From the NCBI GenBank assembly GCA_031387825.1, contig JANNDO010000038.1, positions 16,114-80,113 of the forward strand: 64,000 bases of DNA. The letters run 5' to 3'. The notes under the pieces are model-generated. The model worked only from the letters and a program-made list of their open reading frames with translations, was not told where the DNA came from and did no database searches. Positions 35,519 through 63,188 of the stretch are shown one piece after another (position 1 is the first letter of the stretch; each line of letters starts with the position of its first letter). The DNA comes from Chitinophagaceae bacterium. GTDB taxonomy: Bacteria > Bacteroidota > Bacteroidia > Chitinophagales > Chitinophagaceae. A program made the translations under genes and the position numbers.

Positions 35519-35520
35519 TC

Positions 35521-39041: not shown

Positions 39042-39088
39042 ATCATCTACGTTACTTCCTGCGAAATACGAGTTTTTATTTCATTAAA

Positions 39089-40510: not shown

Positions 40511-40583
40511 ACTGTAATTTATTGCTAAATCATCATTTTGTTATACAGATTTTATAAGCCATGGTTTGTTTTATCTTTGCGCC

Positions 40584-41369: not shown

Positions 41370-41377
41370 AACAAAAC

Positions 41378-42403: not shown

Positions 42404-42457
42404 CCCCGGTTTAAATAAATTTTGTTGGGGTTGTTTTTTTCAATCACAAGAGATATA

Positions 42458-43951: not shown

Positions 43952-43952
43952 G

Positions 43953-44741: not shown

Positions 44742-44942
44742 GAGGTTTAATTATATGCTAATTTACGAATTGAATATATACCATGTTTTTGTTTTATTTT
44801 TCATTAAAAAACAAAAGCTTAATTTTACACTCCACTCCTTAATTAAGATACGCTTGTTGCAAGCCAATGTGGTAAATAAATATTTTCCTGCTGATTCAGA
44901 AAATGCAACGTCTTTGCCAGCCTTATTATAAAAATCCATTTA

Positions 44943-46208
44943 ATGGCATTTAAAAAATTAGATTTAATTGACCCTATCCTGAAAGCATTGGTTGCGGAGG
45001 GGTATTCAACCCCAACGCCCATACAAGCCCAGTCGATTCCATTAATTTTAGAAAGAAGGGATCTGCTTGGCTGTGCCCAAACCGGCACTGGTAAAACGGC
45101 CGCTTTTGCAATTCCTATTTTACAAATATTATATCAGCAGAAACAGGAAGAGCGTGGCCCCAGAAATATTAAAGTATTAATATTAACTCCTACAAGGGAG
45201 CTTGCTATACAGATAGACGAAAGTTTTGCGGCCTATGGAAAATATACCGGGCTTACCCATACCGTAATCTTTGGAGGGGTGTCCCAACAACAGCAAACCA
45301 ATATTTTGCGAAGAGGTATAGATATATTGGTTGCTACCCCGGGCCGTTTACTGGATCTGATAAGCCAGGGTTTTATTGATCTTAAATATCTTAAAATTTT
45401 CGTGTTGGATGAAGCGGATCGTATGCTGGACATGGGTTTCATACACGATGTAAAAAGAATCATTACCAAACTTCCTGCAAAAAGGCAAACGCTGTTTTTC
45501 TCTGCCACCATGCCTCAGGAAATTCAAAAGCTGGCCAATGTATTATTGACCAACCCGGCCAAGGTTGAAGTTACTCCTGCGGCATCTACAGTTGATGCGA
45601 TTGAACAAAATCTTTTTTATGTAGATAAACAAAATAAGCCTAACCTGCTTTTACATTTATTAAAAGACGAGGTAATTCTTACGGCCCTGGTATTTACACG
45701 TACTAAACATGGCGCAGATAAGGTTGTAAAATTTTTACACCGGGCTAATATAACGGCTGCCGCCATTCATGGAAACAAATCACAAAATGCCCGTCAAAAT
45801 GCATTGGGTAATTTTAAAACAGGAAAAACCCGTGTGTTGGTGGCAACAGATATTGCTGCCAGGGGAATTGATATTGACGATCTGTCGCATGTAATAAATT
45901 ATGAGCTTCCAAATGTTCCAGAAACATATGTACACCGTATTGGGCGTACGGGCAGAGCTGGCAATACCGGTATTGCCTTTTCATTTTGCGACGCAGACGA
46001 AAGAACAGAGTTAAAAGATATTCAAAAGCTGATCTGTAAAAATATTCCGGTAGTTAATGAACATCCTTTTCCATTAAGCGCTGCGTCTTTTGCGGCACCA
46101 ATAGCGGCTCCACAAAAACCAAATCAAAAACGCTTCAGGGGTTTTGGCTCTGCTGATAAAGGAAAGAACAGGAATTTTAATAGCAGGCGCCAGGCCCATA
46201 AAAATTAA
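44943..46208 (+). CDS. rhlE: DEAD-box RNA helicase (RhlE-like)
   Basis: AQTGTGKT, PTRELA, LDEADRMLD, SAT and HRIGRTGR. Confidence 0.92.
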   Translation: MAFKKLDLIDPILKALVAEGYSTPTPIQAQSIPLILERRDLLGCAQTGTGKTAAFAIPILQILYQQKQEERGPRNIKVLILTPTRELAIQIDESFAAYGKYTGLTHTVIFGGVSQQQQTNILRRGIDILVATPGRLLDLISQGFIDLKYLKIFVLDEADRMLDMGFIHDVKRIITKLPAKRQTLFFSATMPQEIQKLANVLLTNPAKVEVTPAASTVDAIEQNLFYVDKQNKPNLLLHLLKDEVILTALVFTRTKHGADKVVKFLHRANITAAAIHGNKSQNARQNALGNFKTGKTRVLVATDIAARGIDIDDLSHVINYELPNVPETYVHRIGRTGRAGNTGIAFSFCDADERTELKDIQKLICKNIPVVNEHPFPLSAASFAAPIAAPQKPNQKRFRGFGSADKGKNRNFNSRRQAHKN

Positions 46209-46275
46209 AATACCCAATGGCCGCAATATTTTCATTATTTAATATTGGTACTTTACACCCCTAAACTATTTAAAT

Positions 46276-46779
46276 ATGAAAAAAATCTTTTTGAGTCTTT
46301 GTACAGTGGTTTTAGCAACAATTTTTTTATCCTCCTGTAACAATGAGGTGGCTAAAACTGAAGCGCCTGCATTTAGCCTTGACAGCGCCAAGGCTGCCAT
46401 TGCTGCCAGCAACAAAATTTTTGGCGAATGCTTTGCAACCGGGGATTCCACAAAATTTACCAGTTGTTATACCAGCGATGGTTGTATCAATCCTTCCAAT
46501 ATGCCAAGAATGTGTGGCCCACAGGCTATTACAGCGTTCTTTAATGGCGGGTATAAAATGGGGGTTCGCAATATTAAGCTTACTACCGAAGAGGTAATGG
46601 GTGGAAAAGATGCGGTTGTGGAAGTTGGTAAATATGAAATGTTTGTTGGCGATAATATTTCTGTTGAAAAGGGTAAGTTTATTGTTATCTGGAAAGAAGA
46701 AAACGGAAAATGGAAAATGCACAGGGATATCTGGAATTCTGATAATCCTGCTCCGCCGCCGCCTCCGGCAGCAAAGTAG
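46276..46779 (+). CDS. DUF4440/SnoaL-like lipoprotein
   Basis: Lipobox LSSC and GKFIVIWKEENGKWKMHRDIWN. Confidence 0.85.
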   Translation: MKKIFLSLCTVVLATIFLSSCNNEVAKTEAPAFSLDSAKAAIAASNKIFGECFATGDSTKFTSCYTSDGCINPSNMPRMCGPQAITAFFNGGYKMGVRNIKLTTEEVMGGKDAVVEVGKYEMFVGDNISVEKGKFIVIWKEENGKWKMHRDIWNSDNPAPPPPPAAK

Positions 46780-46902
46780 AAAATAATTTTCTTTGTATAC
46801 GCCGAAGCTTTGCTTCGGTTTTTTATTTCTTTTTTTCTGGAGAAAAATGTTATTTTCATTTAGTCTTATTTTGTCCTTCAGCAGGTTTTAAATTGTTAAT
46901 GT

Positions 46903-47994
46903 ATGGCAACCCGTAATTATTTCTCTTACCTTTTAAATCCGCTGGAGTTATTGCGAACAAAAAAGGTATTACAGGTAAACCCAACGATTGCTTCGTCAAG
47001 GATAGAGCCTGATGAAATAAAACTGGTTGTTCATGATTACACCGCAGCGCAATATGATTTTAAAGAGTTGAAAAGTGCTCCGGATTGTTTTCCTTATATA
47101 GATTCTCCTTCAGTTTCCTGGATTAATGTAGATGGCTTAAGAAAAAAAGATGTTGAGTTGATCTGCAATCATTATGGCATCCATAATTTAATTATAGAAG
47201 ATATTTTAAGTTTTGGCCAGCGGCCTAAAATGGACGAAATAGACGGGCTTTTGTTTTGTGTATTAAACATGCTGTACTTCAATGAAAAAGATTCGGCTGT
47301 TGAAACAGAGCAGATCAGTATTGTGCTGGGCAAAAACTTTGTGATCAGTTTCCAGGAAGATGCGGCCAGAGATGTTTTTAATCCATTAAGGGACCGGCTA
47401 AAGGTTAACAACACAAAGGTCCGGCAAAACGGCGCTGATTTTTTGTTTTACTCTCTTATAGATATGATCGTTGATAATTACTTTGTGGTGATGGAAAAGC
47501 TGGGAGAAAAAATTGAAGGGCTGGAGGAGGATATTGTACGCAACCCCAACACCCGTAGCCTGGCTAAAATAAATATGCTTCGTAAGGAGATCATCATACT
47601 GAAAAGAAGTGTTTCTCCTGTCAGGGAACTGGTCAATGGTATTTTACGCAGCGATAGTGATTTGATCAATGAGCGTACGGAAAAATATTTTAAAGATATT
47701 TATGATCATATCTTACAGGCAAATGACCTGGCTGAGAACTACCGGGATATGATGATGAACCTGCACGACCTGTATCTAAGTAACGTGAATTTAAAAATGA
47801 ATGAAGTGATGAAGGTAATGGCGGTGGTAACCTGTTTGCTTGCGCCGGCAACGGTAATCGGTGGTATATTCGGAATGAATTTTGAAATCATACCCCTGCT
47901 TCATAATAAATGGGGGTTTTTTATTTCGGTGGGGTTAATGCTGTTTATTCCGCTGGCAATGATTAGAATGTTTAAGAAGCGGGGTTGGTTTTAA
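46903..47994 (+). CDS. corA: Magnesium/cobalt transporter
   Basis: QRPKMDE, DFLFYSLID, MNEVMK and GMNF signature. Confidence 0.96.
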   Translation: MATRNYFSYLLNPLELLRTKKVLQVNPTIASSRIEPDEIKLVVHDYTAAQYDFKELKSAPDCFPYIDSPSVSWINVDGLRKKDVELICNHYGIHNLIIEDILSFGQRPKMDEIDGLLFCVLNMLYFNEKDSAVETEQISIVLGKNFVISFQEDAARDVFNPLRDRLKVNNTKVRQNGADFLFYSLIDMIVDNYFVVMEKLGEKIEGLEEDIVRNPNTRSLAKINMLRKEIIILKRSVSPVRELVNGILRSDSDLINERTEKYFKDIYDHILQANDLAENYRDMMMNLHDLYLSNVNLKMNEVMKVMAVVTCLLAPATVIGGIFGMNFEIIPLLHNKWGFFISVGLMLFIPLAMIRMFKKRGWF

Positions 47995-48512
47995 ACCTCT
48001 GTTGTTTTCGGTTTCTTATAAATTGGTACTGTACTACAGGGCTCTCCATACATTATACTTTTTGCCACAGGTCTTAGCAGGCCTGTGATAGCTACATATG
48101 CTGTTTCGGAAATCGGTACCTCGCCACAACCTTTTATTACCACCTTTTTGTCCGTATAATCGGCCGTGTTTATTTTAAAAATATTTTTTAAAAAAAGAGC
48201 TTTATGTAAAAATTCTTTATCTCCAAAAACAACTTCGTTGGCTATGGGTTCCAGGTAGCTTGCCGCAAGCATATAGGCCCACATAGGAATAACAGCGTCT
48301 GCAGAACAGGTAAGCGCTATATTTTTTCCTTTATAGATAGAAAGGTCCAGAGTCTTCATTGTTTCCCTGAATTCTTTTTCTTTCAGTATCAATCCCATGA
48401 ACAAGTGGTCTTTCATATCAAATACCGCAGTCTCTTCTTTTGGGTAATATTCCTCCAGGTCAAGTGTAATCAGGCCGCTTTCAGATACTTTATTTACAAT
48501 CATTCCATCCAT
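47991..48512 (-). CDS. DUF2480 family protein
   Basis: IVNKVSESGLITLDL, CSADAVIPMWA, KGCG and SIMYGEPCSTVP. Confidence 0.9.
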   Translation of the reverse strand: MDGMIVNKVSESGLITLDLEEYYPKEETAVFDMKDHLFMGLILKEKEFRETMKTLDLSIYKGKNIALTCSADAVIPMWAYMLAASYLEPIANEVVFGDKEFLHKALFLKNIFKINTADYTDKKVVIKGCGEVPISETAYVAITGLLRPVAKSIMYGEPCSTVPIYKKPKTTEV

Positions 48513-48524
48513 GCGGCAAAGATA

Positions 48525-48558
48525 AACAAAACGGCTGCCACTTAAGCGGCAGCCGTTT
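48525..48558 (-). terminator. Intrinsic terminator of ppiD
   Basis: AAACGGCTGCC-ACTTAAGC-GGCAGCCGTTT with a T-rich tail on the minus strand. Confidence 0.85.
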
Positions 48559-48578
48559 CCTAATCCGGTAAAATATTA

Positions 48579-50714
48579 TTAATAGAACTTACTTCTGTTA
48601 TCTTTTATGCTGGCTTTTTTACGTATTCCCTCAAACCAGTTTGAAGTAACCTGGCCACGTAACATGCTTATTTGCTGAGTTCTAAATTGTGTTGTTTCTT
48701 CTGCAGTATTTGCTGCCTTGCCTGCTATACTGTTTAATTTAAAAACATATACGCCGGTTTTTCCTGCAATAGGTTCTGAAACCTTATTCATGTTGGCCTT
48801 ATTAATGCTTGCTCCAATTAATTTTGGTTCGAACCCAATGCCCTTAATTTCCTGCGCCTTGAATGTTAGAGATGAGTCCTGGCCTGCGGTTAAAACTTCT
48901 TTACTATAAACAGCGGCTGCGCTCTCTAATGTCGTTTTGCCGTTTAGTTTTTTTATTATTTCTGCAGCTTTCTTTTCATCCCTGATCACACCCTCGGCCA
49001 TTGGTCTTGCAGTAGCTGCGTCCTGCGTTCCCTCTTCCTGTATTTTATCTACAACGGCTACCACAAATTGATCTCCTATACTGTAAGGGTCGCTAACCTC
49101 TCCTTTCTTTGCGTCAAATATCCAGCGCACCAGTTGTCTTGCTTCCTGCAATTGTCCAACCTGGGCATCGTTTTCTTTTATTAAGCCGGGGTTAGTTATC
49201 TTTTGTATTCCGTTTTTCTTTAAATAAGCATCAAAGTTTTTTGGGTCTTTTTCTGCAGAAAGTTTTGTGGCTTCAAGACTGGCTTTATTGATTGTCTCCT
49301 CGCTGGCCAGTATTTCTTTAGCCATGAAGCCAATTTTATATGCCGGGCTCTGTCCTTTTTGTTTCAACACTTCAATTATATGATATCCGAATTGTGTTTT
49401 TACAATATCTCTCGACCCTTCTGGTTTTGTAAATACAAATTCATTAAATTCGGGAACCATTTGTCCGTAATAAATACTGGGGTATTCACCTCCCTTGTCT
49501 TTACTACCCTCATCTGTTGAGAATTGTTTTACCATAGTGCCAAAATCAGCACCGGCTTTAATTGCATTGAAAATACTATCTGCCTGCTTTTTTGCAATGC
49601 TATCTTCTAAAATTGGTTGGCCGTTTTGCGGGTTAACAGTACCAATTAGTATATGTCTGGCTTTTACACTGTCTGGCAAAGTTTTGCTTCCCAGTGTTTT
49701 TGCAAGTACATAATTTCCCTGGTCTACATAAGGGCCATATACTGTTCCTGCAGGAAATTTTACAATAGTATCAATTGCTATGCTTTTTATTTTTGATTTG
49801 GGTAAGTAGTTGGTATCAAAGTCAATGGCAGAAGTATTTCTGGCTAAAAAGGTTTTTACATTGGTTTCATTAATAAATTCTGCTTTTAATGATTCGATTA
49901 CAGCTTTTGTTCTTGTACTGTCAGCTGCATTTGGTAATTGGCTGAAAGCAACATAAGAAATCATTCGTCCTTCTTCCTGCTTAAACAGGTCTTTATTCTT
50001 TTTAACATATTTTTCAATCTCTGCATCGCTTACTTTAATAGTACTGTCTGCAATAATATTATAAGGAATGGCAACATAGCTTATATTGGCAAAGTTTTTA
50101 TTTTCCATAATATCTTTTTCCTCCATCCAGGCCGGGTAATAGGCACTGGCGTTTAAAAGAGCCAGATATTTTGTAGATACGCTTGCAATTTTTTGTGGGT
50201 CAATTACTTGTGCATCAATCATATCTCTTTGTTCGCCTTTCATTTTCTTGATATTACTAATAGCCTGGCTTACTTTACTCATATCAAGCATTCCGGTTGC
50301 GGGGTCTACCATTTGCTTATCCTGCATTAGTGGGTTAGATGGATCATTACTTGTTAAAACAGCATTAAGCTCTTTTGAAGTAAAATCAATTCCCAGTTTA
50401 GCCGCTTCATCATAAAATATTCTTTCTACCGTCATTTGGTTCCAGACCTGGTCACGTATCTGTCCAGAACGGGATGTACTCACCTTTGATCCGGATTGTT
50501 GTTCTTCCTGAGTCTCAATAACTTTTACCTTCTTATTAAACTCATCCAGCTCAATAGTTTTTCCGTTTACTTTACCAATACTGCCAGATGCGGAACTAAA
50601 CATGTTATTACTACCCTGTTTGGCATCCATCAGTATAAAACCTATTAAGCTCAATGATATTACCACAATTACGATTGCAGCTCCTTTTTCACGAATTCCC
50701 TGAATAATTTGCAT
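48579..50714 (-). CDS. ppiD: Membrane-anchored periplasmic chaperone/PPIase
   Basis: N-terminal MQIIQGIR plus TM anchor, SurA-like N domain, and parvulin domain (ARHILI, KTQFGYHII). Confidence 0.88.
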   Translation of the reverse strand: MQIIQGIREKGAAIVIVVISLSLIGFILMDAKQGSNNMFSSASGSIGKVNGKTIELDEFNKKVKVIETQEEQQSGSKVSTSRSGQIRDQVWNQMTVERIFYDEAAKLGIDFTSKELNAVLTSNDPSNPLMQDKQMVDPATGMLDMSKVSQAISNIKKMKGEQRDMIDAQVIDPQKIASVSTKYLALLNASAYYPAWMEEKDIMENKNFANISYVAIPYNIIADSTIKVSDAEIEKYVKKNKDLFKQEEGRMISYVAFSQLPNAADSTRTKAVIESLKAEFINETNVKTFLARNTSAIDFDTNYLPKSKIKSIAIDTIVKFPAGTVYGPYVDQGNYVLAKTLGSKTLPDSVKARHILIGTVNPQNGQPILEDSIAKKQADSIFNAIKAGADFGTMVKQFSTDEGSKDKGGEYPSIYYGQMVPEFNEFVFTKPEGSRDIVKTQFGYHIIEVLKQKGQSPAYKIGFMAKEILASEETINKASLEATKLSAEKDPKNFDAYLKKNGIQKITNPGLIKENDAQVGQLQEARQLVRWIFDAKKGEVSDPYSIGDQFVVAVVDKIQEEGTQDAATARPMAEGVIRDEKKAAEIIKKLNGKTTLESAAAVYSKEVLTAGQDSSLTFKAQEIKGIGFEPKLIGASINKANMNKVSEPIAGKTGVYVFKLNSIAGKAANTAEETTQFRTQQISMLRGQVTSNWFEGIRKKASIKDNRSKFY

Positions 50715-50740
50715 ACTTGTTATTTAATTAAAATGGAGGG

Positions 50741-50748
50741 CAAAAATA
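50741..50748 (-). promoter_or_regulatory. -7 promoter element (TATTTTTG) for ppiD
   Basis: CAAAAATA on the + strand, 26 nt from the start codon. Confidence 0.6.
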
Positions 50749-50749
50749 G

Positions 50750-51292
50750 GGTAAAATTAGATAGATTAGGTTATTTAAGGTTATTAAACCCATTAAAATA
50801 GCTATTAATCAGTCAAAACGGGGCTTATTGGGCTTTTATTAGAATACACAAAAAAGAATTCTTTTTTCCTGGTTTTGGGTTTTACACATAATCTTGTTGG
50901 TAAACCCATATTACTGTTGGTAATCACATAATTTAAGCCTAAAAAATATGCGAAAAATGAGTAAATATTTAAGAAAGACCTGATCAATTATTTTTTGTGG
51001 TACAAACTTATTGTTTATACAATAAGTATTAACAGGGCTTAATTAATAATATTAAATTTTTCTTTCCCCATAAACAATTATTAACCGGTGTGTATAAAGA
51101 TAAACTAATGGGGTAAACAGGTTACTTATAGCAGCTGCTTAACTCATCTATTTAAATGTTAATTTACTGTGGATGAGTGTTAATAAATTAAAGGTTTTAA
51201 TTTTGTAACAAGTTTATCAATTATTCTATCCACAAATTAACAGCCCTAGTAGTAATAGATGATTATATAAATAAATAGTATTAATACATATT
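50750..51292. other. Putative chromosomal replication origin (oriC)
   Basis: AT-rich 578-bp gap. Perfect TTWTNCACA boxes at 50880-50888 (+) and 51089-51097 (-). One-mismatch boxes at 51168-51176 (-), 51178-51186 (-) and 51226-51234 (+). Box-box-GCCC-trio-AT-rich module at 51226-51292. parS and mnmG nearby. Confidence 0.8.
51226..51292 (+). promoter_or_regulatory. Basal unwinding system-like module (tandem DnaA boxes, GC clamp, DnaA-trios, AT-rich DUE)
   Basis: CTATCCACA AATTAACA GCCC TAGTAGTAATAGATGAT TATATAAATAAAT. Confidence 0.72.
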
Positions 51293-52297
51293 ATGGTAGA
51301 TATTAACACTGCAAAATCAACAATTAAAACCAGGGGTTTTCTGGATGTCAGTATTGACCCTAACCTTGATTTGTTTGCAGAGATAGAGTCGTTGAAAAAG
51401 GAAAAGAACGCAATCATTCTGGCACATTATTACCAGGAGCCGGATATACAGGATGTTGCTGATTATATAGGTGATAGTTTAGGTCTTGCACAAAAGGCAG
51501 AGAAAACAATTGCGGATATGATTATTTTTGCCGGAGTTCATTTTATGGCTGAAACTGCAAAGATCCTTAACCCATCTAAAAAAGTATTATTACCTGATTT
51601 AAATGCTGGTTGTTCATTAAGTGATTCGGCACCCCCACCATTATTTAAGTTATTTAAGGAAAAACATCCTGGCCATATAGTTGTAACCTATATTAATTGT
51701 TCTGCCGGTATTAAGGCACTAAGTGATATAATCTGTACTTCTTCTAATGCTCAAAAAATCGTTGAAAGCTTACCGGCAGACCAGCCAATAATTTTCGCTC
51801 CAGATAAGAACCTTGGGGCTTATATTAATAAGCAGACGGGTAGAAATATGGTATTATGGAATGGTGCCTGCATGGTTCATGAAATATTTAGTATGGAGAA
51901 AATTTTAAAATTAAAAATACGTCATCCAAAAGCTAAAGTAATTGCTCATCCGGAATGTGAAGCTCAGGTTTTAACTCTTGCTGATTTTATCGGTAGCACA
52001 ACCGGTTTATTGAATTATACCCAGAAAAGTGAAGCTCAGGAATTTATTGTTGCAACCGAAACGGGTATTTTACACCAAATGCAAAAATATAATCCATATA
52101 AAATTTTTATACCTGCACCCCCTAATAATAATTGTGCATGCAATGATTGCCCACATATGAAATTAAACACCCTTGAAAAATTATATTTGTGCTTAAAGTA
52201 TGAACTACCGGAAATTGAGATGGACGAATCACTACTGAAGGCAGCAAAGAAGCCAATAGATACGATGTTAAAAATAAGTGCTCAATATGGATTATAA
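51293..52297 (+). CDS. nadA: Quinolinate synthase
   Basis: [38 protein letters not shown] and CPHMKLNT. Confidence 0.97.
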
Positions 52298-52460
52298 TAT
52301 TATAAAAAAATAATAGAGCGTGGTTTAATAATCTGTCAAATTTTTGTAGATAAGGAGTTGACTTAAATTTTCTACCATAGATTGGTACTCCTTAAAGTAT
52401 GATTACTGTAAAAAGGAAAAGTTGGTATTAGTGCAGAAGAATTACTGAAAAAAAGGAAAT

Positions 52461-52492
52461 TTTGTAGTTTCTAATAATCAAAACTACATTCG
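52461..52492 (+). promoter_or_regulatory. chrA promoter (TTTG-N20-TACATTCG) overlapped by an 8-bp inverted repeat
   Basis: TGTAGTTT (52463-52470) and AAACTACA (52481-52488) with a 10-nt spacer. Confidence 0.5.
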
Positions 52493-52521
52493 TAAGAAAT
52501 AAATAATTACAAACTCTCTAT

Positions 52522-53775
52522 GTGATGAATCTGTTGCGGCATATCCCTTTCTTAAAAGCTGTGTTCGTGCATAGTATTTCCGCATTTGGAGGACCACAAG
52601 GACACACAGGAATGGTTTTAAAGACCTTTGTAGAGCGTAGAAGGGATCTTACAAAAGAAGAGCTGATGGAATATATTTCTTTTTGCCAGCTTTTACCGGG
52701 TGCTTCATCAACTCAAACACTAACTCTTATTGGATATAAACGGGGAGGAGTAAAGTTAGCAGTTCTTACTCTTGTTATTTGGATATTACCAGCGTGTACA
52801 TTAATGGGGGGGTTATCTTTTATTGTAGGTAGTATTGAAAAAGAAGATATTCAGACAAGCCTGTTTCAGTTTATTCAACCAATGGCAATTGGCTTTTTAG
52901 TATATGCTGCAGTTAACGCATTTCATATAAGCGTTAAAAACCAAATCACAAGAATTATTATGTTCATTGCGTTGGTTGGCACATATTTATTTTTTAAAAC
53001 CCCCTGGATAATTCCGATATTAATTATATCTGGAGGTGTTGTAACAAATTTCAGCAATAAACGTATTCCGGAAAAAGAGATTATAAAACCAAAACAAATT
53101 CGATGGACAAACATCTGGCTTTTTGTACTGATTTTTGCAATAGCAGGAATATTAAGCGAAACGGCGAGAAAACAAAACTGGGAGAACAAAAAGAGGTATA
53201 ATTTATTTGAAAATTTTTATCGTTTCGGAAGTTTTGTTTTTGGAGGAGGAGACGTTTTAATTCCTTTAATGCTTGACCAGTATGTTGTAAGGCCCACATC
53301 AGAAAAAGTTGTAAAGAAAAACGCTGATGTATTAAAATTAGACAGAGAAGAACTATTAACAGGAGCTGGAATAGTAAGGGCAATCCCGGGCCCGGTTTTT
53401 TCAATTGCATCATTTATGGGGGGAATAGTATTAAAAAAAGAGGGTACAAGGGGCCAGCTGTTGGGTTGTATAATTGGCTCTATTGCTATATTTCTTCCTA
53501 GTGCACTTCTAGTACTCTTTTTTTTTCCGGTCTGGCAACAACTAAAAAAATTTGTAATTGTATATAGGTCACTTGAAGGAATTAATGCTGCAGTAGTCGG
53601 AATCATGATAGCAGCAACTCTTTATTTGTTAAAAGACGTTTCTATTGTTTCTTTTAATATAATTAGCCTGGTAAATATCAGTGTTATAGCCGGTACATTT
53701 TTAGCTCTTCAATTTTCAAAAACCCCCCCCCCACTTATTGTTCTGTTTTGTTTACTAATTGGCTGGATTTTTTAA
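52522..53775 (+). CDS. chrA: Chromate ion transporter (CHR family, long chain)
   Basis: AFGGP, QLLPG, FVFGGG and AIPGP repeated in two halves. Confidence 0.9.
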
Positions 53776-54348: not shown

Positions 54349-54378
54349 AAAGAGTTAAAAATCAAAGTAATAAAAAAG

Positions 54379-54615
54379 TTAGACAACCAGCACCTCTTCT
54401 ACCCATATCATTTCCGCCTCATCTAAACGAAGGCTTAACCGATATCCAGCTATGGTTATTGAGATTGGATCCCCCAGGGGAGCAACTTGATCTACTCTTA
54501 CTATTTCACCAGGAATACACCCCATTTCCATAAGTTTCAAAAAGAGATCATTAGTTTCAAATTCTTTTATAACCGCATTAGACCCTGCGGCCATTTCAGA
54601 TAATTTTTTTTTCAT
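54379..54615 (-). CDS. feoA: FeoA family protein
   Basis: KLMEMGCIPG, APLGDP and SLRLDEA. Confidence 0.92.
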   Translation of the reverse strand: MKKKLSEMAAGSNAVIKEFETNDLFLKLMEMGCIPGEIVRVDQVAPLGDPISITIAGYRLSLRLDEAEMIWVEEVLVV

Positions 54616-54705
54616 TTATTTTATCAAATCATTTCAACCATAATTAAATTATTACAAATGTATCAAATCAATATTGTTGTATAATTTCGATATTAGAAAA
54701 TCCCA

Positions 54706-55131
54706 ATGCAAAAAATACAGTTTATTAATCATAAAAGAAATCCGGACCTTAGAAATAAAAAGCTCCTAAAGGTTTTTATTCTCGAATTATTTGCAAAGGA
54801 GAGAAAAAAAATAAAAAAAATAACATATATATTTTGCTCTGATAAACAAATTATTAATATTAATAAAATCTTTTTAAAACATAATTATTATACTGATATT
54901 ATTAGTTTTGATTTATCGCAACTGCCAGAGGAGACAGAAGCAGAAATTTATATAAGCATAGACAGGGTAAAGGATAACGCTTCAAAAGAAGGGGTGTCTT
55001 TTAATGAAGAGCTACATAGGGTGATTTTTCACGGAGCCCTTCATTTTTGTGGTTATAATGACAAAAAAAGAGAAGAGGCAAAGGAAATGAGAAAAAAAGA
55101 AAACCAATATCTTAATAAGTATTTTGAATAA
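54706..55131 (+). CDS. ybeY: rRNA maturation endoribonuclease YbeY
   Basis: YTDIISF, EIYIS and zinc motif HGALHFCGYND. Confidence 0.93.
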   Translation: MQKIQFINHKRNPDLRNKKLLKVFILELFAKERKKIKKITYIFCSDKQIININKIFLKHNYYTDIISFDLSQLPEETEAEIYISIDRVKDNASKEGVSFNEELHRVIFHGALHFCGYNDKKREEAKEMRKKENQYLNKYFE

Positions 55132-55171
55132 AGCTTTTACTTTATGCCAGTTTTGGATAATAAAATTGCTT

Positions 55172-55187
55172 GGTTTCACGTGGAACA
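55172..55187. promoter_or_regulatory. parS centromere-like site
   Basis: GGTTTCACGTGGAACA matches TGTTTCACGTGNAACA at 15/16 positions. Intergenic, just before mnmG. Confidence 0.82.
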
Positions 55188-55246
55188 AATAACCTCTAAA
55201 CCAGATTAAAACTACAAAAAACGATCACTTATCTTTGCTGATTAGA

Positions 55247-57115
55247 ATGTTTCCAAAATACGACATAATAGTAGTGGGCGCCGGCCATGCCGGATGTGAA
55301 TCAGCCGCCGCCGCTGCAAACCTTGGCAGTAAGGTTTTATTGATAACCATGAATTTACAAACGATTGCTCAAATGAGCTGTAACCCAGCTATGGGGGGTA
55401 TTGCCAAGGGGCAAATTGTTCGTGAGATAGACGCAATGGGTGGATATAGCGGGGTGGTTACCGATAAAAGCATGATTCAATTCAGGATGCTGAATAGATC
55501 AAAAGGGCCAGCCATGTGGAGTCCAAGAGCCCAAAGCGACAGAATGTTATTTTCAACCACATGGAGAGAAATGCTTGAGAACACAAAAAACATAGATTTT
55601 TATCAGGATACTGTAACCGGGATATTAGTAAGTGATAAAAAAATAACTGGGGTTTGCACAGGATTAGGGCATAAAATAATGGCAAAATCAGTTATTTTAA
55701 CCAATGGAACTTTTCTTAATGGAGTAATTCATATTGGAGAAAAAAATTTTGGTGGTGGAAGAATGGCAGAAAAACCGTCAATTGGAATTACCGAACAACT
55801 TGTTACTTTAGGGTTTGAATCTGACAGACTAAAAACTGGAACTCCTCCAAGAGTTGATGGCAGGAGCCTTGATTATTCAAAAATGGAAGAACAAAAAGGA
55901 GATGATGAAATTGTAGGGTTTAGCTATTTAAGCCTTAATCTGATTAGGCCAGAGCTGCAAAAAAGTTGTTGGATTACTTATACAAACGAAAAAGCACATA
56001 ACCTTTTAAAAACGGGTTTTGAGAAAAGCCCAATGTACCAAGGAAGAATTCAGGGGACTGGCCCAAGATATTGCCCAAGCATAGAAGATAAAATAAACCG
56101 CTTTTCACAACGGGATAGACATCAATTATTTGTAGAGCCAGAGGGACACAATACTATTGAAATATACGTCAACGGATTCTCCACTTCATTGCCAGAAAAT
56201 GTTCAATATCAATCACTTAGATTAATTCCTGGGTTTGAAAATTGTAAAATGTTCAGGCCAGGATACGCAATAGAATATGATTATTTTCCACCGACACAAC
56301 TTAAACTTAGCCTCGAAACTAAACTAATAGAGAACTTGTTTTTTGCGGGCCAAATAAATGGAACAACCGGTTATGAAGAAGCCGCATGTCAAGGGTTGAT
56401 GGCCGGAATAAACGCCCATCAGAAAGTTAGGGAGCAAAATCCTTTTATTTTAAAACGAAGTGAAGCTTACATTGGTGTTCTAATTGATGATTTGATAAAT
56501 AAAGGCACGGATGAGCCCTACCGTATGTTTACAAGTCGGGCAGAATTCAGGACTTTATTGAGACAGGATAATGCAGATCTGCGGCTTACCGAAAAAGCTT
56601 ATCTATTAGGCCTTGCTTCTCAAGAAAGAATGGATACAGTAAAAACCAAAAGAGAAAATGTCGAAAATATAAAAAAGACACTATCTGTATTAAGTATAGA
56701 GCCTGAAGAATCCTCCCAATATTTAGAGAGCATTCAATCATCAACATTACTTGCCAAACAAAAAGCATCTCAAATTTTATTGAGACCAATGGTTGGAATA
56801 AAAGAAATGATAGAAAATATCCCAAAAGTAAAAGAAACCCTTAGGGATTATGACAATGAAACCCTTGAACAAGCAGAAATACAAATTAAGTACGATACTT
56901 ATATTGAAAAAGAAAAAGAACTGGTTTCAAAAATGAGTCAGCTCGAAGACTTAATAATACCTGATAATTTTAATTATGAAAAATTGGTTTCGCTTAGTAA
57001 CGAAGCCCGGCAGAAGTTTACAAAAATAAAACCAGGAACATTAGGACAAGCATCAAGAATTTCGGGAGTTAATCCAAGTGATGTTCAAATTCTAATGGTT
57101 TTTATGGGAAGATAA
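55247..57115 (+). CDS. mnmG: tRNA uridine-5-carboxymethylaminomethyl(34) synthesis enzyme (GidA)
   Basis: GAGHAGCE, MSCNPAMGG, GPRYCPSIEDK and AGQINGTTGYEEAA. ATG 55247 follows TATCTTTG (55230-55237). Confidence 0.98.
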   Translation: MFPKYDIIVVGAGHAGCESAAAAANLGSKVLLITMNLQTIAQMSCNPAMGGIAKGQIVREIDAMGGYSGVVTDKSMIQFRMLNRSKGPAMWSPRAQSDRMLFSTTWREMLENTKNIDFYQDTVTGILVSDKKITGVCTGLGHKIMAKSVILTNGTFLNGVIHIGEKNFGGGRMAEKPSIGITEQLVTLGFESDRLKTGTPPRVDGRSLDYSKMEEQKGDDEIVGFSYLSLNLIRPELQKSCWITYTNEKAHNLLKTGFEKSPMYQGRIQGTGPRYCPSIEDKINRFSQRDRHQLFVEPEGHNTIEIYVNGFSTSLPENVQYQSLRLIPGFENCKMFRPGYAIEYDYFPPTQLKLSLETKLIENLFFAGQINGTTGYEEAACQGLMAGINAHQKVREQNPFILKRSEAYIGVLIDDLINKGTDEPYRMFTSRAEFRTLLRQDNADLRLTEKAYLLGLASQERMDTVKTKRENVENIKKTLSVLSIEPEESSQYLESIQSSTLLAKQKASQILLRPMVGIKEMIENIPKVKETLRDYDNETLEQAEIQIKYDTYIEKEKELVSKMSQLEDLIIPDNFNYEKLVSLSNEARQKFTKIKPGTLGQASRISGVNPSDVQILMVFMGR

Positions 57116-57127
57116 AATACGAATATT

Positions 57128-57643
57128 ATGAGCCTGAATTTTTTAACAGATACCCCCAAAGAGTTAATATTTGAAACTGTTGCAGAGCACCTGCATCTTA
57201 AAAATTTAAAAATTAATAAGCAGGATAACACGAGGCCCTGGGGCGGATTTTTTGTAATAGATGAAGCAGAGGCAGAAAAATTTATACAATTTTACTTCCC
57301 ACTCCTCACCCAGGAAGAGTTAAATATTTCAGGCAAACTAAGCCCCAAAATATTAGTGGTAGCGCCAAATAAAAGATTAAGCTGGCAGTATCATCATCGA
57401 CGTGCAGAAATCTGGAAATTAATTGGAGGAACTGCAGGAGTTGTAACTAGCGATACTGATGAAGAAAAAGAGACCAGATATTTAGGTATTGGAGATATTG
57501 TTCAACTTAAACAAGGGGAGAGACACAGACTGATTGGCTTAGAAAGCTGGGGAATAATTGCAGAGATCTGGCGCCATACTGATGCTAAAAGCCCCAGTGA
57601 TGAAGATGACATAGTAAGGGTTCAGGATGATTTTGGAAGGTAA
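57128..57643 (+). CDS. Cupin protein, mannose-6-phosphate isomerase type II C-terminal-like
   Basis: RPWGGF, RLSWQYHHRRAEIW, GERHRL and DIVRVQDDFGR. Confidence 0.85.
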   Translation: MSLNFLTDTPKELIFETVAEHLHLKNLKINKQDNTRPWGGFFVIDEAEAEKFIQFYFPLLTQEELNISGKLSPKILVVAPNKRLSWQYHHRRAEIWKLIGGTAGVVTSDTDEEKETRYLGIGDIVQLKQGERHRLIGLESWGIIAEIWRHTDAKSPSDEDDIVRVQDDFGR

Positions 57644-57650
57644 AATTATT

Positions 57651-60143
57651 CTACAGACGAAGGGGAGCCTTTTTATTTACAGCATCAGAATCTTTGAGCG
57701 TTTCCAAAACCATCCTTACTTCACCATAACTGATATCTTTTGGTAAATTATCAATTAATGTTTTATGGCTCAGGGAACCGTGTTTGGAAACAGCCCCTTT
57801 GACTAATTCCTGTTTTTCTTTACTTACCAATTCGTTGATATTAATTTCACCGACCCCTACAAAATATGCAAGGTGACCCTCAATGGTACTGGTTGCTAAA
57901 TTTCTTTCTTTCGCAATAGCAGCAGTATCTTTTCCCTCTTTATATAAATTTAAAGAAATTGTTTTAGTATCAAGTTTTGTTTCAGAAATTTTCGGCGCTC
58001 TCTCTTTTTTGGGCATATATAATTTTGCGCCCATGTTGCTTTCCAGATTATACCTTTCACAAAAACTTTCAACAGCCTCAAGTATTTCCTCTCCATATTT
58101 TTCGGCCTTAGCTTTTCCAAAACCGCTGATTTGCATTAAATCTTTTTTGGTCAGCGGCAGGTAAGTACAAATTTCCTGTATCGTAGCCTGATTTGCAACC
58201 ATATAAATCGGTTGACCGGTGTCAGCACAAATTGTATTTCGCCAACGCCTTAGCGTATCATATAATTCAGCATTTGACAAACCAGCTTGAACCTCCTTCG
58301 TCTCACTTGCATAACAGTTAATATTATACCGGGGCTGAACATATTTTAATTTATGCTGTAAAAATCCAGTAATAGAAAAAGGCTGTTTACAAAATTGCAT
58401 ATAGAAATTACAAATATACAGAGCCAAACCAAAGTCATTTAGTTTCTCATTAATTGGAGTAGCCGTTTCCTTATGCTCTGTTATTAATGGGTGATTTCTT
58501 AATTCTTTAATGTAACCATCTAATTTTGGAACAAAATGATTGGAAGCGTCAGAGATTCTTTTTTGCAGCAGTGCGTTATTTTCTATGACCGCCCCTCCTT
58601 TCATTAGCTCTGCAACCAGTCCGATGAATTTTAAGCCAACAGGTTTATCCGTAGCTAAGCGTTGTTTAAAATTTTCAATCCAGTCAACAGCCCCAGCATT
58701 TAATTTTTCTTTATGTTGTTTTATCTGAAAACCTAATTGCTCAACGACTACTGTTATTTCGGCAAAAGAAAATATTTCTTCCAACAGTTGTTGTGTAAAT
58801 AATTGCCTTGCCCCGGCAAACCGATCTTCTAAAGAGCCTTTATAAGAAAGCGATTGTTGACCTTTAATTACATTTTCATTACTGTATATGGCCGCCGAAG
58901 GGATCTTACTCAATAAAACTATACCCCCTAAGCTTGTACAACGGCTTAATGCTACATACACTTGCCCGCTGCTAAATGCAGCGCCGGCATCAATCATTAC
59001 TTTTTCAAAAGTCAAACCCTGGCTTTTGTGTATAGTAATGGCCCACGCAAGTCTTAGGGGATATTGTGTAAAGGTGCCTAGCGTTTCCTGTTCAATCTTT
59101 CCATCAGCACGGTTTAGTGTGTAACGGCTGTTTTCCCAGGTGTCCAACCCTACCTCAATATCGATGCCATCACTTTCCACAATTATTTTTGCTTTTTCTA
59201 GAGATTTTATCACTCCGATTTTACCATTGTAATATCGTTTTTGAATCATATCACTTTTTAAAAACATCACTTGAGCCCCCTCTTTTAGAGACAACTCAAA
59301 ATCTACCGGGTACATATTTTCCGGAAAATCATTTTCAATTTCAGCCTTGTAAGTAAACGTAGCCTTGTCAATTTTATATAGTTGCTGTTGGTTAATCAGG
59401 TCGGCCTGGTTATTGTGAGAGGTAAGTGTAATATATTTTTCATCTGGCGATGGGCTAAACCCGGGGTCAAAGCGTAAATGCAAATCTTCAAAATCATCTG
59501 ATTCCATATGGTTGTTACGAACCTTGTTAAGCAACCGTACAAAACTTTCTTCTTTCTGGCGGTAAATTTTATTTAGCTCTATTAGTAATGGCGATTGCTC
59601 TTTAATAGCCAGGCTGTCAAAGAAGAAAGGGGATGCATAATATTCACTTAATATATTCCATTCATGGTTTTGCACCACAGGAGGTAGCTGGTGCAGATCG
59701 CCAATGCATAATAATTGAACGCCGCCAAAAGGTAAATGATAATTTCTCCTGGCGTGTTTTAAAATAGTATCAATAGCGTCCATCACATCGCACCGCACCA
59801 TGCTTATTTCATCAATTACCAATAATTCCATTTTACGTAGTATCTGCAGCCGTTGTTTATTATACCTGATTTTCGCAAGCAACTCATCTTTATTATTTTT
59901 TGTAGGAAGAAAAGGATGAAAGGGTAATTGAAATAAGCTATGCAGCGTAACGCCTCCGGCATTTATTGCAGCCACACCCGTTGGAGCAGCCACTATAATA
60001 TTTTTTGTAGAATTATCTTTCAGGTATTTCAAAAAAGTAGTCTTGCCTGTACCTGCTTTTCCTGTAAGAAAAAGGTTTTCGTTTGTTTCAGTAACAAAGC
60101 GATAAGCCAGGTCAAAGAGTTCATTTCTTTCTATTGTTTGCAT
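57651..60143 (-). CDS. PIF1/RecD-like SF1B helicase with HRDC and C-terminal helix-turn-helix domains
   Basis: GKAGTGKTT, APTGVAA, IDEISM, GDLHQLPP, TIHKSQGLT and YVALSR. HRDC region (LRRWR...GFGKAK) and HTH (IAKERNL..STIEGH). Confidence 0.9.
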   Translation of the reverse strand: MQTIERNELFDLAYRFVTETNENLFLTGKAGTGKTTFLKYLKDNSTKNIIVAAPTGVAAINAGGVTLHSLFQLPFHPFLPTKNNKDELLAKIRYNKQRLQILRKMELLVIDEISMVRCDVMDAIDTILKHARRNYHLPFGGVQLLCIGDLHQLPPVVQNHEWNILSEYYASPFFFDSLAIKEQSPLLIELNKIYRQKEESFVRLLNKVRNNHMESDDFEDLHLRFDPGFSPSPDEKYITLTSHNNQADLINQQQLYKIDKATFTYKAEIENDFPENMYPVDFELSLKEGAQVMFLKSDMIQKRYYNGKIGVIKSLEKAKIIVESDGIDIEVGLDTWENSRYTLNRADGKIEQETLGTFTQYPLRLAWAITIHKSQGLTFEKVMIDAGAAFSSGQVYVALSRCTSLGGIVLLSKIPSAAIYSNENVIKGQQSLSYKGSLEDRFAGARQLFTQQLLEEIFSFAEITVVVEQLGFQIKQHKEKLNAGAVDWIENFKQRLATDKPVGLKFIGLVAELMKGGAVIENNALLQKRISDASNHFVPKLDGYIKELRNHPLITEHKETATPINEKLNDFGLALYICNFYMQFCKQPFSITGFLQHKLKYVQPRYNINCYASETKEVQAGLSNAELYDTLRRWRNTICADTGQPIYMVANQATIQEICTYLPLTKKDLMQISGFGKAKAEKYGEEILEAVESFCERYNLESNMGAKLYMPKKERAPKISETKLDTKTISLNLYKEGKDTAAIAKERNLATSTIEGHLAYFVGVGEININELVSKEKQELVKGAVSKHGSLSHKTLIDNLPKDISYGEVRMVLETLKDSDAVNKKAPLRL

Positions 60144-60163
60144 TGTAATAAAGATAAGAGGAT

Positions 60164-60204
60164 AAAAAGAAAAGGGCGCTGATTAAATTGATTAATCAAC
60201 GCCC
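60164..60204 (-). terminator. Intrinsic terminator of ssb
   Basis: 13-bp stem GGGCG(C/T)TGATTAA with one G-U pair, followed by TTTTCTTTT on the minus strand. Confidence 0.8.
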
Positions 60205-60212
60205 GGTAAAAA

Positions 60213-60560
60213 TTAAGCTGTTGGTTTTTCACCACCCATCAGCAGTAACTCATTTACCTGAACTTCGGTAATGTATTTTTTATTGCCGTCTTTATCATTA
60301 TAACTGCGGTTTATGAGCTTGCCCTCAATGGCAACTTCTTTACCCTTAGTTAAATACTTTTCAGCAATATCTGCAACCTTACCCCAGGCCACCAAATTGT
60401 GCCAGGTTGTTTCGGTTACTTTTTCACCCTTAGCGTTACGATAGCTTTCATTTGTTGCTACACTAAAGCGGGCAAGTTTTTTACCAGATTCAGTAGTTTT
60501 TACTTCTGGTGCGTTTCCTAAATGTCCAATTAACTGAACTTTGTTTTTTAATGCGTACAT
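60213..60560 (-). CDS. ssb: Short single-stranded DNA-binding protein lacking the acidic tail
   Basis: NKVQLIGHLG, FSVATNE, TTWH and GKEVAIEGKL. Ends ...GGEKPTA. Confidence 0.92.
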   Translation of the reverse strand: MYALKNKVQLIGHLGNAPEVKTTESGKKLARFSVATNESYRNAKGEKVTETTWHNLVAWGKVADIAEKYLTKGKEVAIEGKLINRSYNDKDGNKKYITEVQVNELLLMGGEKPTA

Positions 60561-60771
60561 AGTTTTAAGTTTTGTGTCTTGCCTGAGGCTAGACGGTTTT
60601 TAATTTATTTCAACCAACCGGTAAGACGTCATTTCCGATTGACAACACAAAGATGCGGCGGCAAAAAAGCGGTAGTCGGAGATTATACTTTTACTTACCT
60701 TTATAAGCGTATGTAAACGGGTATATCGGAAAAAAAGAAAACATAATATTTACCAAACTCAATCCTGTACT

Positions 60772-61146
60772 ATGTTAAAGCAAAAAGAAGAAAAAATCTG
60801 CCTGCTTTGCAATAAGGTGCTTAAAGGACGAAGCGATAAGAAATTTTGCGACGATTATTGCCGGGCGGCCTATAATAATGATCTAAAAAGCGCTTCAAAT
60901 AACTTTATCAGGAATGTAAATAACGCGTTGGGTAAAAACAGGCGAATACTTGAAAACCTTCTTCGCGATAACGAGGCAACCGCAAAAGCAAACAGAGATA
61001 AGCTTATTGAAAAAGGGTTTCAATTTAAATACCTGACAAATATCCATAAAACAAAAAACGGTCACACATACTATTACTGTTATGAATATGGCTATCTACC
61101 CCTGGAGAATAATTGGTTTTTGATTGTTAAAAGAAACGAAGAATAA
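60772..61146 (+). CDS. Hypothetical zinc-ribbon protein (DUF2116-like)
   Basis: CLLC...GRSDKKFCDDYCR motif and YYYCYEYGY. Confidence 0.8.
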   Translation: MLKQKEEKICLLCNKVLKGRSDKKFCDDYCRAAYNNDLKSASNNFIRNVNNALGKNRRILENLLRDNEATAKANRDKLIEKGFQFKYLTNIHKTKNGHTYYYCYEYGYLPLENNWFLIVKRNEE

Positions 61147-61235
61147 AATTTGATTCATGCCGCAAGCAACAATTAAATCATATTTCCTATCTGAGATTAT
61201 GCAAAAATTATAAAGTATTTTTACTGGCTTAATTA

Positions 61236-63182
61236 ATGAATTTGCGATTGTTTTTAAATAGACCTGCCCGAATTATTATTTCATTTGTGTTCATATTTTG
61301 CATTTCGCAAAAAATAAATGCACAATGCGGCACCCCTATTTCCACATTTCCTTATAACGAAGGGTTTGAAACCACCAATGGCGGCTGGACAGCAGGTGGC
61401 GCATTATCTGACTGGATATGGGGCACACCGGCAAAAACAATAATTAACAGCGCAGCCAACGGAACAAAATGCTGGATCGTAGGTGGTTTAACCGGAGGTA
61501 GTTACAATGATGCCGAAGCATCCTGGTTGCTAAGCCCGTGCTTTGATTTTACGAGTCTTCAATATCCATACTTATCATTCAATGTCTTTTGGGAAATGGA
61601 AAGAAGGTTTGATGGCGCAGGATTTCAATACTCAACTAACCTGGGTGTAACCTGGACAAATGTTGGAACCGTATCGGACCCGGTAAATTGTTTAAACGAG
61701 AATTGGTTTAATTTTTCTCCAATTACTTATTTAAATACGCTTGCCACAGTAAGAGACGGTTGGTCGGGAAATATTCAACCGACTTCAGGTAGTTGCCAGG
61801 GCGGTGGCGGAAGCACAAGGTGGGTAAGCGCCAAACATACTATGCCCAACCTGGCAGGTATGCCAAACGTGATTTTCAGATTTATTTTTGGGGCAGGCAC
61901 CCAATGTAATGCTTACGAAGGTTTTGCCGTTGATGATATCTTGATTTCAGAAGCGCCACCCAACAATGCAGCGTTTACTTATTCCTGTATCAATAATACA
62001 ACAGTAAATTTTTCAAACAATTCAGCTCTTTGTCCTGCAACAGCCTGGGATTTTGGAGATCCTTCATCGGGAACAAACAATACATCAACCCTGGCCAACC
62101 CTGCCCATGTTTTTTCTGCACCCGGAACTTATACCATTACATTAAATGCGACCGGTCCGGCAAATGCGCCATCATCAACATCACAAATAGTAAATATTCT
62201 GGGCTTAACAACATCAGTTATTTCTAACAATAATTGTTTTGGAGATAATAATGGGTCTGCTTCCGTTAATGTTATTCCTGTTTCAGCCGCACCCTTTTTT
62301 TATTCATGGAACACAACGCCAACACAAACAACAGCAACAGCAACAGCCCTTGCAGGAGGAACATATACAGTTACCGTAAGTGCGCTGAATAGCTGCACCA
62401 CTACCGCTACAGCTATAATAACAGAACCTGTAGCATTAACACATGGCGTAAATATTATTCAACCCGGGTGTGCAGTTACAACAGGCTCGGCAACCATAAC
62501 AGAGAGTGGTGGCACAGCCCCTTATACCTATTCCTGGTTTCCTTCAGGCGGTATTGGCCCTACAGCTAGCGGGCTTTCGCCGGGAAATTATATAGTAACT
62601 GTTACAGACAGTAAATTATGTAAAGAAGACATCAATATAATTATTGCAACTGCTACAGCACCTAATATTAATATTGTAAATAGCAAAGACGTAAGCTGTT
62701 TTGGACTAAGCGACGGCAATGCTACAGTACGGGTTACCGGAGGCAACCCCCCATATAACTATAGTTGGAATACAATACCTGTACAAAACACAGCAACAGC
62801 AACAAATCTTCCGGCAGGAAATTATTCAGTAACAGTTACAGACAATAATGGATGTTCTGCAGGAACATCAGTTCAGATTACTCAACCACTAAATGGTTTT
62901 TGTGGCGAAGTGTATTTTCCTAATTCATTTACGCCAAACGGAGATACAAAGAATGACGATTTTGGACCACTTGGAAATATTACTGCAATCAGCAATTATC
63001 ACTTACAGGTTTATAACCGGTATGGAGAAATAGTGTTCAGCAGCAGAGACCCGTTTGAAAAATGGAATGGTTTTTATAAATCAAAACTAAACAGCCCGGG
63101 TAGCTTTGTTTGGTTTGTTGCTTACACGTACAAGGGCCGGCTCAAACGATCAGAACAGGGAACGGTTACTATAATAAGATAA
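61236..63182 (+). CDS. Secreted protein with PKD and SprB-like repeats and a type B T9SS (gliding-motility-associated) C-terminal domain
   Basis: Signal peptide, WDFGD PKD motif, GGTAPYTYSW/PPYNYSW repeats, and FPNSFTPNGD..ND...YNRYG CTD. Confidence 0.9.
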   Translation: MNLRLFLNRPARIIISFVFIFCISQKINAQCGTPISTFPYNEGFETTNGGWTAGGALSDWIWGTPAKTIINSAANGTKCWIVGGLTGGSYNDAEASWLLSPCFDFTSLQYPYLSFNVFWEMERRFDGAGFQYSTNLGVTWTNVGTVSDPVNCLNENWFNFSPITYLNTLATVRDGWSGNIQPTSGSCQGGGGSTRWVSAKHTMPNLAGMPNVIFRFIFGAGTQCNAYEGFAVDDILISEAPPNNAAFTYSCINNTTVNFSNNSALCPATAWDFGDPSSGTNNTSTLANPAHVFSAPGTYTITLNATGPANAPSSTSQIVNILGLTTSVISNNNCFGDNNGSASVNVIPVSAAPFFYSWNTTPTQTTATATALAGGTYTVTVSALNSCTTTATAIITEPVALTHGVNIIQPGCAVTTGSATITESGGTAPYTYSWFPSGGIGPTASGLSPGNYIVTVTDSKLCKEDINIIIATATAPNINIVNSKDVSCFGLSDGNATVRVTGGNPPYNYSWNTIPVQNTATATNLPAGNYSVTVTDNNGCSAGTSVQITQPLNGFCGEVYFPNSFTPNGDTKNDDFGPLGNITAISNYHLQVYNRYGEIVFSSRDPFEKWNGFYKSKLNSPGSFVWFVAYTYKGRLKRSEQGTVTIIR

Positions 63183-63188
63183 ATTAAA

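Follow-up and report, generated by a model that had tools for sequence, protein, structure and literature searches.

The stretch analysed here is a window of 64,000 nucleotides from the genome of a Chitinophagaceae bacterium (assembly GCA_031387825.1; positions 16114-80113 of contig JANNDO010000038.1, hereafter C33), in which the strand bias between T and A at silent sites changes sign at about 51-52 kb, next to the divergent genes ppiD and nadA. It is quite likely, in our judgement, that this flip marks a replication origin, most probably seated in the ppiD-nadA spacer, with ordinary G/C polarity and with a local A/T zone of about 45-60 kb per arm superimposed on it. In this zone, silent fourfold-degenerate sites are A-rich on the strand whose 5' to 3' direction leads outward from the origin (the leading-strand sequence) and T-rich on its complement.

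The assembly comprises 3.75 Mb in 44 unordered contigs with 39% G+C, and C33 is a contig of 96 kb (C-numbers denote contigs of this genome, unless a relative is named, and G-numbers related genomes). A gene set of 3002 genes, obtained with a simple picker of codon-scored open reading frames, covers 89% of the genome. Skews at fourfold-degenerate sites are given as TA4, that is (T-A)/(T+A), and GC4. From the fourfold counts of each gene the genome-wide coding-strand expectation was subtracted and the residual was signed by gene strand; a positive signed residual means that the + strand is enriched, regardless of gene direction. All contigs were scanned for maximal segments with a z value that allows for over-dispersion, and the G/C and T/A replication components were computed over 23 contigs (2.76 Mb) with clear sign.

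The hand tallies of T versus A per gene from which a first-pass annotation had noticed the switch were all reproduced at fourfold sites (FG-GAP gene, T236/A183; paaZ-like gene, T60/A115; further genes in Table 1), and nadA is indeed the exception it had been taken for. To the left of the flip, genes on the + strand have a TA4 of +0.112 and genes on the - strand one of -0.153, giving a strand component of +0.133, and to the right the corresponding values are -0.149, +0.157 and -0.153. The change point of third-position T/A lies at window position 51795, where the value passes from +0.067 to -0.072, a step matched by 0 of 200 permutations. The two arms are the most extreme segments of the genome: C33:11203-68410 (z +7.5) ranks first and C33:68635-82945 (z -6.5) second, followed by the end of contig C21 (C21:46514-63754, z 5.4).

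The signed T-A curve rises from 4.9 kb before the window, where the left arm begins (C33:11203), peaks after nadA at about 52.3 kb and then declines to the contig end. The left arm is strongest in its last 20 kb (+0.19), and TA4 amounts to -0.22 for positions 52522-66832 of the right arm (z -6.5). This arm extends past the window as far as C33 reaches, and synteny carries it on into C21:63754-46514 reversed, a C33-C21 join that is based on collinearity with G001. The flip interval (50715-52521) is supported by the cumulative maximum, the change point and the segment boundary between 52297 and 52522. The bias is concentrated at codon position 3 (z 8.4 and -5.1); first positions and spacers share its sign but only weakly, and second positions lean slightly the other way. 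A k-mer asymmetry analysis within the zone gave top words that track gene direction and no special motif. Skew in the zone reaches +/-0.13-0.15 as compared with about 0 genome-wide, and beyond C33 the T/A strand correlation between adjacent genes is almost nil, while their G/C correlation is long-range as expected.

A pattern of this kind could in principle arise from no positional process at all, if genes with an intrinsic preference for T- or A-ending codons happened to be arranged by strand. In this regard, gene-level TA4 varies beyond sampling (standard deviation 0.141 vs 0.122 expected), highly expressed operons are T-rich on the coding strand, and ppiD and mnmG are A-rich in G017 as well. 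However, the z values of the two arms hold the first and second ranks in the genome, G014 shows the flip despite different flanking genes, and the orthologues tested acquire the T/A bias inside the zone and lose it outside, which makes a chance arrangement very improbable. Three further top TA4 segments, C15:56-65 kb, C31:7-40 kb and C4:7-42 kb, correspond to the str operon, the rpoBC/rplKAJL/tuf operons and the ribosomal-protein operons. Their coding strands are markedly T-rich at fourfold sites, apparently through a codon preference tied to expression and distinct from the strand effect.

Our results clearly show that the zone recurs at the ppiD-nadA locus, in six of the eight congeners sampled. 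G012, G013 and G014 have it in strong form (left-arm z 4.3-6.1), in G001, G007 and G019 it is weaker, and G016 and G017 lack it; the flip falls just past chrA in G001, G013, G014 and G012, and chrA itself has A>T in the present genome but T>A in G001 and G013. G014 has the same zone though its flanks carry different genes, and 18 of its in-zone genes have a coding TA4 of -0.177 as compared with +0.018 for their orthologues lying outside the zone in the present genome. Conversely, the zone genes of the present genome pass from -0.133 (leading) and +0.164 (lagging) to -0.031 and +0.034 in their relocated G017 orthologues. The A/T bias follows chromosomal position, not gene identity. Protein divergence among the species compared is 15-25%, at which saturation of silent sites is expected, in which case the bias must be upheld by a process that is still operating.

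The same comparison bears on whether a recent inversion or a chimeric assembly could have joined segments of opposite inherited skew at the flip, as the first-pass annotation had allowed for. The genus is heavily rearranged and inverted blocks of G013 take their T/A sign along. The 11-kb block over the flip (corA-DUF2480-ppiD|nadA-chrA-...-mnmG) is nevertheless unbroken in eight related genomes, with gene order preserved, and the rest of the genome is without a T/A replication skew that could supply such segments, so that an origin of the flip by rearrangement or misassembly is hardly credible. Gene order in this GTDB genus is scrambled into blocks of few genes, as seen when G017:C12:222-622 kb and G016:C9:940-1140 kb are set against the contigs of the present genome.

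The type of substitution was addressed in a pool of seven genomes, within 45 kb of the locus. At fourfold sites of the zone, leading genes have A.305 and T.257 and lagging genes A.257 and T.306, and twofold sites show no matching asymmetry (R.693 vs.695; Y.651 vs.668). The genome background displays the classical transition pattern (Y.701 vs.679; R.679 vs.713), with no A/T difference. A fourfold A/T shift without twofold asymmetry means that the zone is an asymmetry of A↔T exchange, in which the usual C→T asymmetry is nearly missing. Transition-type (C→T) asymmetry dominates outside the zone and is nearly absent within it. The tentative explanation that we favour, and hold to be possible though somewhat short of even, is that substitution between A:T and T:A is biased by strand while the first stretch after initiation is replicated, or as a consequence of its replication, and that the zone represents the equilibrium footprint of this bias; a different replisome state, an exposed leading-strand template or a different early state of the dNTP pool may be the cause. 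With the same reserve, in a lineage of this flavobacterial genus the first ~50 kb of each arm may be under an ongoing A:T↔T:A regime of their own, which renders the leading strand A-rich, in which C→T asymmetry is suppressed and which moves with the origin and not with the genes; the zone would then reflect, in its composition, a replisome or template state particular to the period after initiation. The first-pass annotation had suspected unusual strand-specific mutation or repair in this genome: that suspicion may apply to the local, origin-proximal zone, but not to the genome as a whole.

Alternatively, the locus may be an origin whose zone is kept by selection, either for oriented A-rich words that serve an organiser of the origin domain or through a codon or transcription effect that depends on direction relative to the fork. 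The effect in spacers is only about one quarter of that at fourfold sites, the sign at codon position 2 is opposite, and the zone ends seem fairly definite (C33 at ~11 kb, C21 at ~46.5 kb), all of which would fit such an explanation. No particular skewed word stood out, however, and the effect is greatest at the least constrained sites. ParB-type domains in other bacteria span 10-20 kb, as compared with the ~100 kb of the zone. Taken together, we regard selection as an unlikely cause of the zone, though less so than the other alternatives weighed here.

The first-pass annotation had concluded that, if the evidence for an origin held, the skew of the whole genome would be reversed relative to fork direction. 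Our findings do not bear this out. The genome-wide replication component of GC4 is +0.069 (95% confidence interval 0.058-0.080) on the strand of the housekeeping genes, and that of TA4 is -0.0065 (95% confidence interval -0.017 to 0.003), indistinguishable from 0. All 19 housekeeping markers found by invariant motifs (among them rpoB, rpoC, tuf, fusA, rpsL, infB, two ATP-synthase subunits, groEL, two dnaK, recA, rplB, secY, gyrA, gyrB, rpsB and ftsZ) lie on the G-rich strand, which also carries 26 of 34 scored tRNA genes and dnaA. Because the G-rich strand holds these markers and tRNA genes, G/C polarity is ordinary and the G-rich strand is the leading strand. The G-rich strand carries all 19 markers as against 53.5% of all genes, a very selective constraint on orientation. 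A codon log-odds classifier, trained with this strand as label, recovered the contig-level strand label in 96% of held-out chunks of 25 genes, in a test that is partly circular, since the labels come from third-position G/C skew.

On C33 itself the G/C signal does not switch. GC4 strand skew is -0.029 to the left of the flip and -0.016 to the right, a change-point test for G/C on the contig found nothing significant, and cumulative G-C has only a shallow local minimum at 42-45 kb. The G/C tallies of corA and the minus-strand helicase, on which a switch at 51 kb had been suggested, are correct as counts (Table 1) and turn out to be single-gene outliers. Skewed octamers, considered as a marker of fork direction, gave marginal G-rich words only (GGCAGGGG, 72:21), too sparse for a 96-kb contig.

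A clearer picture emerges from the relatives. In G001, which belongs to the same genus (MnmG 84% identical), a 304-kb contig is collinear with C33, C21 reversed, C27 and C25. Cumulative GC4 on G001 contig C17 has its minimum at 74 kb, beside ppiD (76.2-78.3 kb) and nadA (at 78.9 kb), and climbs over the following 225 kb, which is the usual V of an origin; cumulative TA4 has its maximum at 84 kb. A G-C minimum lies at the ppiD-nadA locus in G014 and G007, too. For the present genome we placed the contigs provisionally in the order C24, C33, C21 reversed, C27, C25, of which the part from C33 to C25 is supported by G001. Along this scaffold GC4 starts at about -0.09 on the left side, stays at about 0 between -80 and +40 kb and takes values of +0.03 to +0.11 on the right side, and TA4 is +0.02 to +0.07 far left and +0.10 to +0.19 near the flip, then -0.16 and -0.15, then +0.01 to -0.085. 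Raw cumulative G-C describes a broad V with its minimum between -80 and +48 kb, in which the origin call of a skew tool would be displaced by gene-direction noise. Given the G-C minimum at this locus in the three relatives and on the provisional scaffold, GC-skew tools would call an origin here and not a terminus, contrary to the expectation in the first-pass annotation that such tools would exchange the two.

These data also speak strongly against reading the locus as the replication terminus, with the T-rich strands as ordinary leading strands that converge on it and with the DnaA boxes, the parS-like site and mnmG as coincidences. The T/A polarity fits an Escherichia coli-type terminus rule, gene direction leans slightly toward the locus (27 genes facing it vs 17 facing away on the left; 14 vs 11 on the right), and the G/C signal on C33 is weak. 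Yet a terminus here needs G/C polarity to be reversed genome-wide, against the placement of the 19 markers, the tRNA genes and dnaA, and it needs a cumulative G-C maximum where G001, G014 and G007 have a minimum; moreover, there is no genome-wide T-rich leading strand that could converge. No dif-like site was found either: C33 has no match to the E. coli or B. subtilis dif core at up to four mismatches, where the dif of Bacteroidota may differ, and a scan for palindromic arms gave nothing convincing. We therefore consider a terminus very improbable, if slightly less so than a chance arrangement of genes. With an A-rich leading strand, the probable origin departs in its A/T sign from the E. coli-type rule, as had been noted earlier.

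Within the origin reading, attention centres on the ppiD-nadA spacer, which most likely is the chromosomal replication origin. The segment next to nadA (51120-51292), which contains a DnaA-box-like word, CAGCCC, TAGTAGTAATAG and an AT-rich run, is nearly invariant in an alignment of four species (the present one, G001, G013 and G017), which the remaining spacer is not. A module of DnaA box, GC cluster, DnaA-trio and AT-rich unwinding region is known from other bacteria, and the conserved segment is similarly arranged. Considered as a possible riboswitch, the module and nadA leader gave no family match in Rfam. The parS-like palindrome in the ybeY-mnmG spacer ties for the best match genome-wide; at the equivalent position G013 carries TGTTCCACGTGAAAAA and G001 has none, and a ParB gene is located on C19. 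In the 5 kb to the right of the flip (51293-56000), G+C at fourfold sites is 0.27 vs 0.39 genome-wide, so that the probable origin lies in a small AT-rich trough; G001, G007 and G019 have weaker dips at the equivalent place.

Several observations, however, weigh against an origin with a superimposed zone at this locus. The count of DnaA boxes in the spacer is equalled at no fewer than 20 other places (at least 20) in the genome, which makes the boxes alone weak evidence; dnaA sits on another contig, C1, and not on C33; and the conserved module, which abuts the nadA start, could be the nadA promoter. The C24-C33 join of the scaffold is weak, based on one gene each in G016. G016 and G017 keep the ppiD-nadA locus yet are without the zone, and the G-C minimum of G017 lies ~90 kb from ppiD-nadA, beside orthologues of window positions 40566-43951. 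The classifier performs unusually weakly on C33, with scores of -3, 0, -7, 0, -8, +11, -9 and -7 per ten genes, and this contig alone therefore cannot place an origin by G/C; the 25 kb to the right of mnmG are slightly C-rich, not G-rich. Finally, T/A skew in spacers is only about +/-0.02 (z 2.8 and -2.4) as compared with about +/-0.09 at fourfold sites, a poor fit to a pure mutation bias at the DNA level, and a cause linked to coding or transcription, or selection, is accordingly possible.

Table 1. Features of the window discussed in the text (window coordinates; T/A and G/C entries for genes are counts at fourfold-degenerate sites)
Feature	Position	Strand	Remarks
Left arm of A/T zone	1..52297		+ strand (lagging-strand sequence) T-rich at silent sites; TA4 +0.133
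rhlE-like DEAD-box helicase	44943..46208	+	T59/A46
corA	46903..47994	+	T38/A25; outlying G46/C18
ppiD-like PPIase/SurA-N protein	48579..50714	-	coding strand A-rich, T75/A116
Probable oriC	50715..51292		578-bp spacer between divergent ppiD and nadA; 26% G+C; three DnaA boxes at one mismatch
T/A flip interval	50715..52521		ppiD-nadA spacer, nadA, nadA-chrA spacer
Conserved module of ~170 bp	51120..51292	+	inverted box TGTGGATGA, box CTATCCACA, CAGCCC, TAGTAGTAATAGATGAT (DnaA-trio-like), AT-rich run to nadA ATG
nadA (quinolinate synthase)	51293..52297	+	T49/A40
Right arm of A/T zone	52522..64000		+ strand (leading-strand sequence) A-rich; TA4 -0.153 overall
chrA chromate transporter	52522..53775	+	T59/A78
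parS-like palindrome	55172..55187		GGTTTCACGTGGAACA; ybeY-mnmG spacer; 14/16 to TGTTTCACGTGAAACA
mnmG (gidA)	55235..57115	+	T69/A91
PIF1-like helicase, HRDC and HTH_40 domains	57651..60143	-	T112/A78, G67/C47
SprB-repeat/PKD protein with CHU_C type IX secretion signal	61236..63182	+	T81/A149

The gene content of the window, with CHU_C/Por tails of type IX secretion system (T9SS) proteins and SprB repeats, is that of a Flavobacteriia-like member of the Bacteroidota, and the gene names proposed in the first-pass annotation were confirmed, including DUF2480, a nadD-like cytidylyltransferase (- strand), ybeY and SSB (- strand). Two + strand genes of 3.3 and 4.4 kb at 26-34 kb were considered as rpoBC, which would be head-on to an origin at 51 kb; this identification was rejected, since by Pfam one is a Sortilin/BNR protein and the other an FG-GAP T9SS protein, and the true rpoBC is on C31. 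A gene for a PIF1-family helicase followed by the SSB gene (57651-60560) lies 6 kb from the probable origin; the pair adjoins mnmG in five congeners and is found elsewhere in three. The PIF1-HRDC helicase and SSB were discarded as a cause of the zone, since their proximity to the origin does not go along with its presence across genomes: in G014, where the zone is present, the helicase gene sits on a different contig. Exact overlaps of 89-141 bp join the contig ends C38/C41, C31/C23, C7/C37, C37/C19, C23/C2/C16 and C18/C8, and G/C strand signs agree over each sign-clear join (C7/C37, C37/C19, C31/C23, C38/C41, C18/C8); the same search for overlapping contig ends found no partner for C33.

At mammalian replication origins (N-domains), skew jumps and then decays with distance, and the zone described here similarly flips abruptly at the probable initiation site and loses amplitude outward. 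The mammalian decay, however, reflects mixed fork direction among many origins, whereas a bacterial replichore has a single fork direction, and the decay seen here therefore needs another cause.

Replication-linked strand asymmetry of the Lobry type, a GC and AT skew, switches sign at oriC (reviewed in PMC3269016 and PMC3269012). The present bias likewise mirrors itself between the arms whichever way genes point, is most pronounced at silent sites and flips at a probable origin, and the genome-wide G/C component is of the classical, transition type. In contrast to the replichore-wide Lobry-type skew, the A/T bias is confined to ~45-60 kb per arm, is of opposite sign, involves A↔T only and is found where G/C skew is nearly absent. 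The premise of the first-pass annotation that a leading strand is normally T-rich fails in this phylum: 30 of 85 Bacteroidetes genomes (35%) are enriched in A and G together by the ZCC index, and the group is without the strong AT/GC disparity correlations found elsewhere and has no fixed sign (Zhang and Gao, 2017; PMC5291525). Joint enrichment of A and G on the leading strand is what the present genome shares with these, and an A-rich leading strand is not novel by itself, given the variable sign in Bacteroidetes (PMC5291525). The ZCC index, however, describes the raw composition of whole chromosomes, whereas the silent-site A/T component is about 0 genome-wide here and the effect is local.

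As far as the account in PMC4070872 goes (Charneski, 2011, cited therein), the purine asymmetry of Firmicutes is tied to PolC and to a strong gene-strand bias. Within that account, leading-strand A>T together with G>C is shared with the present genome, but the Firmicute asymmetry is chromosome-wide with ~75% of genes on the leading strand, whereas here the corresponding proportion is 53.5% and the effect, measured after correction for gene direction, is local. A text search of the literature returned no account of a bacterial A/T skew confined to the neighbourhood of an origin, which counts as a weak negative.

Together, our findings indicate that the sign of A/T skew is unusable for orienting replication in Bacteroidota, and that GC-skew tools would not swap origin and terminus in this genome, its G/C skew being normal. 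If the zone is mutational, silent-site composition would record something specific to the first tens of kilobases of replication, with helicase-polymerase uncoupling, template exposure, early dNTP pools and polymerase usage as possible causes. In this regard, the zone may provide a compositional marker for origins that do not adjoin dnaA.

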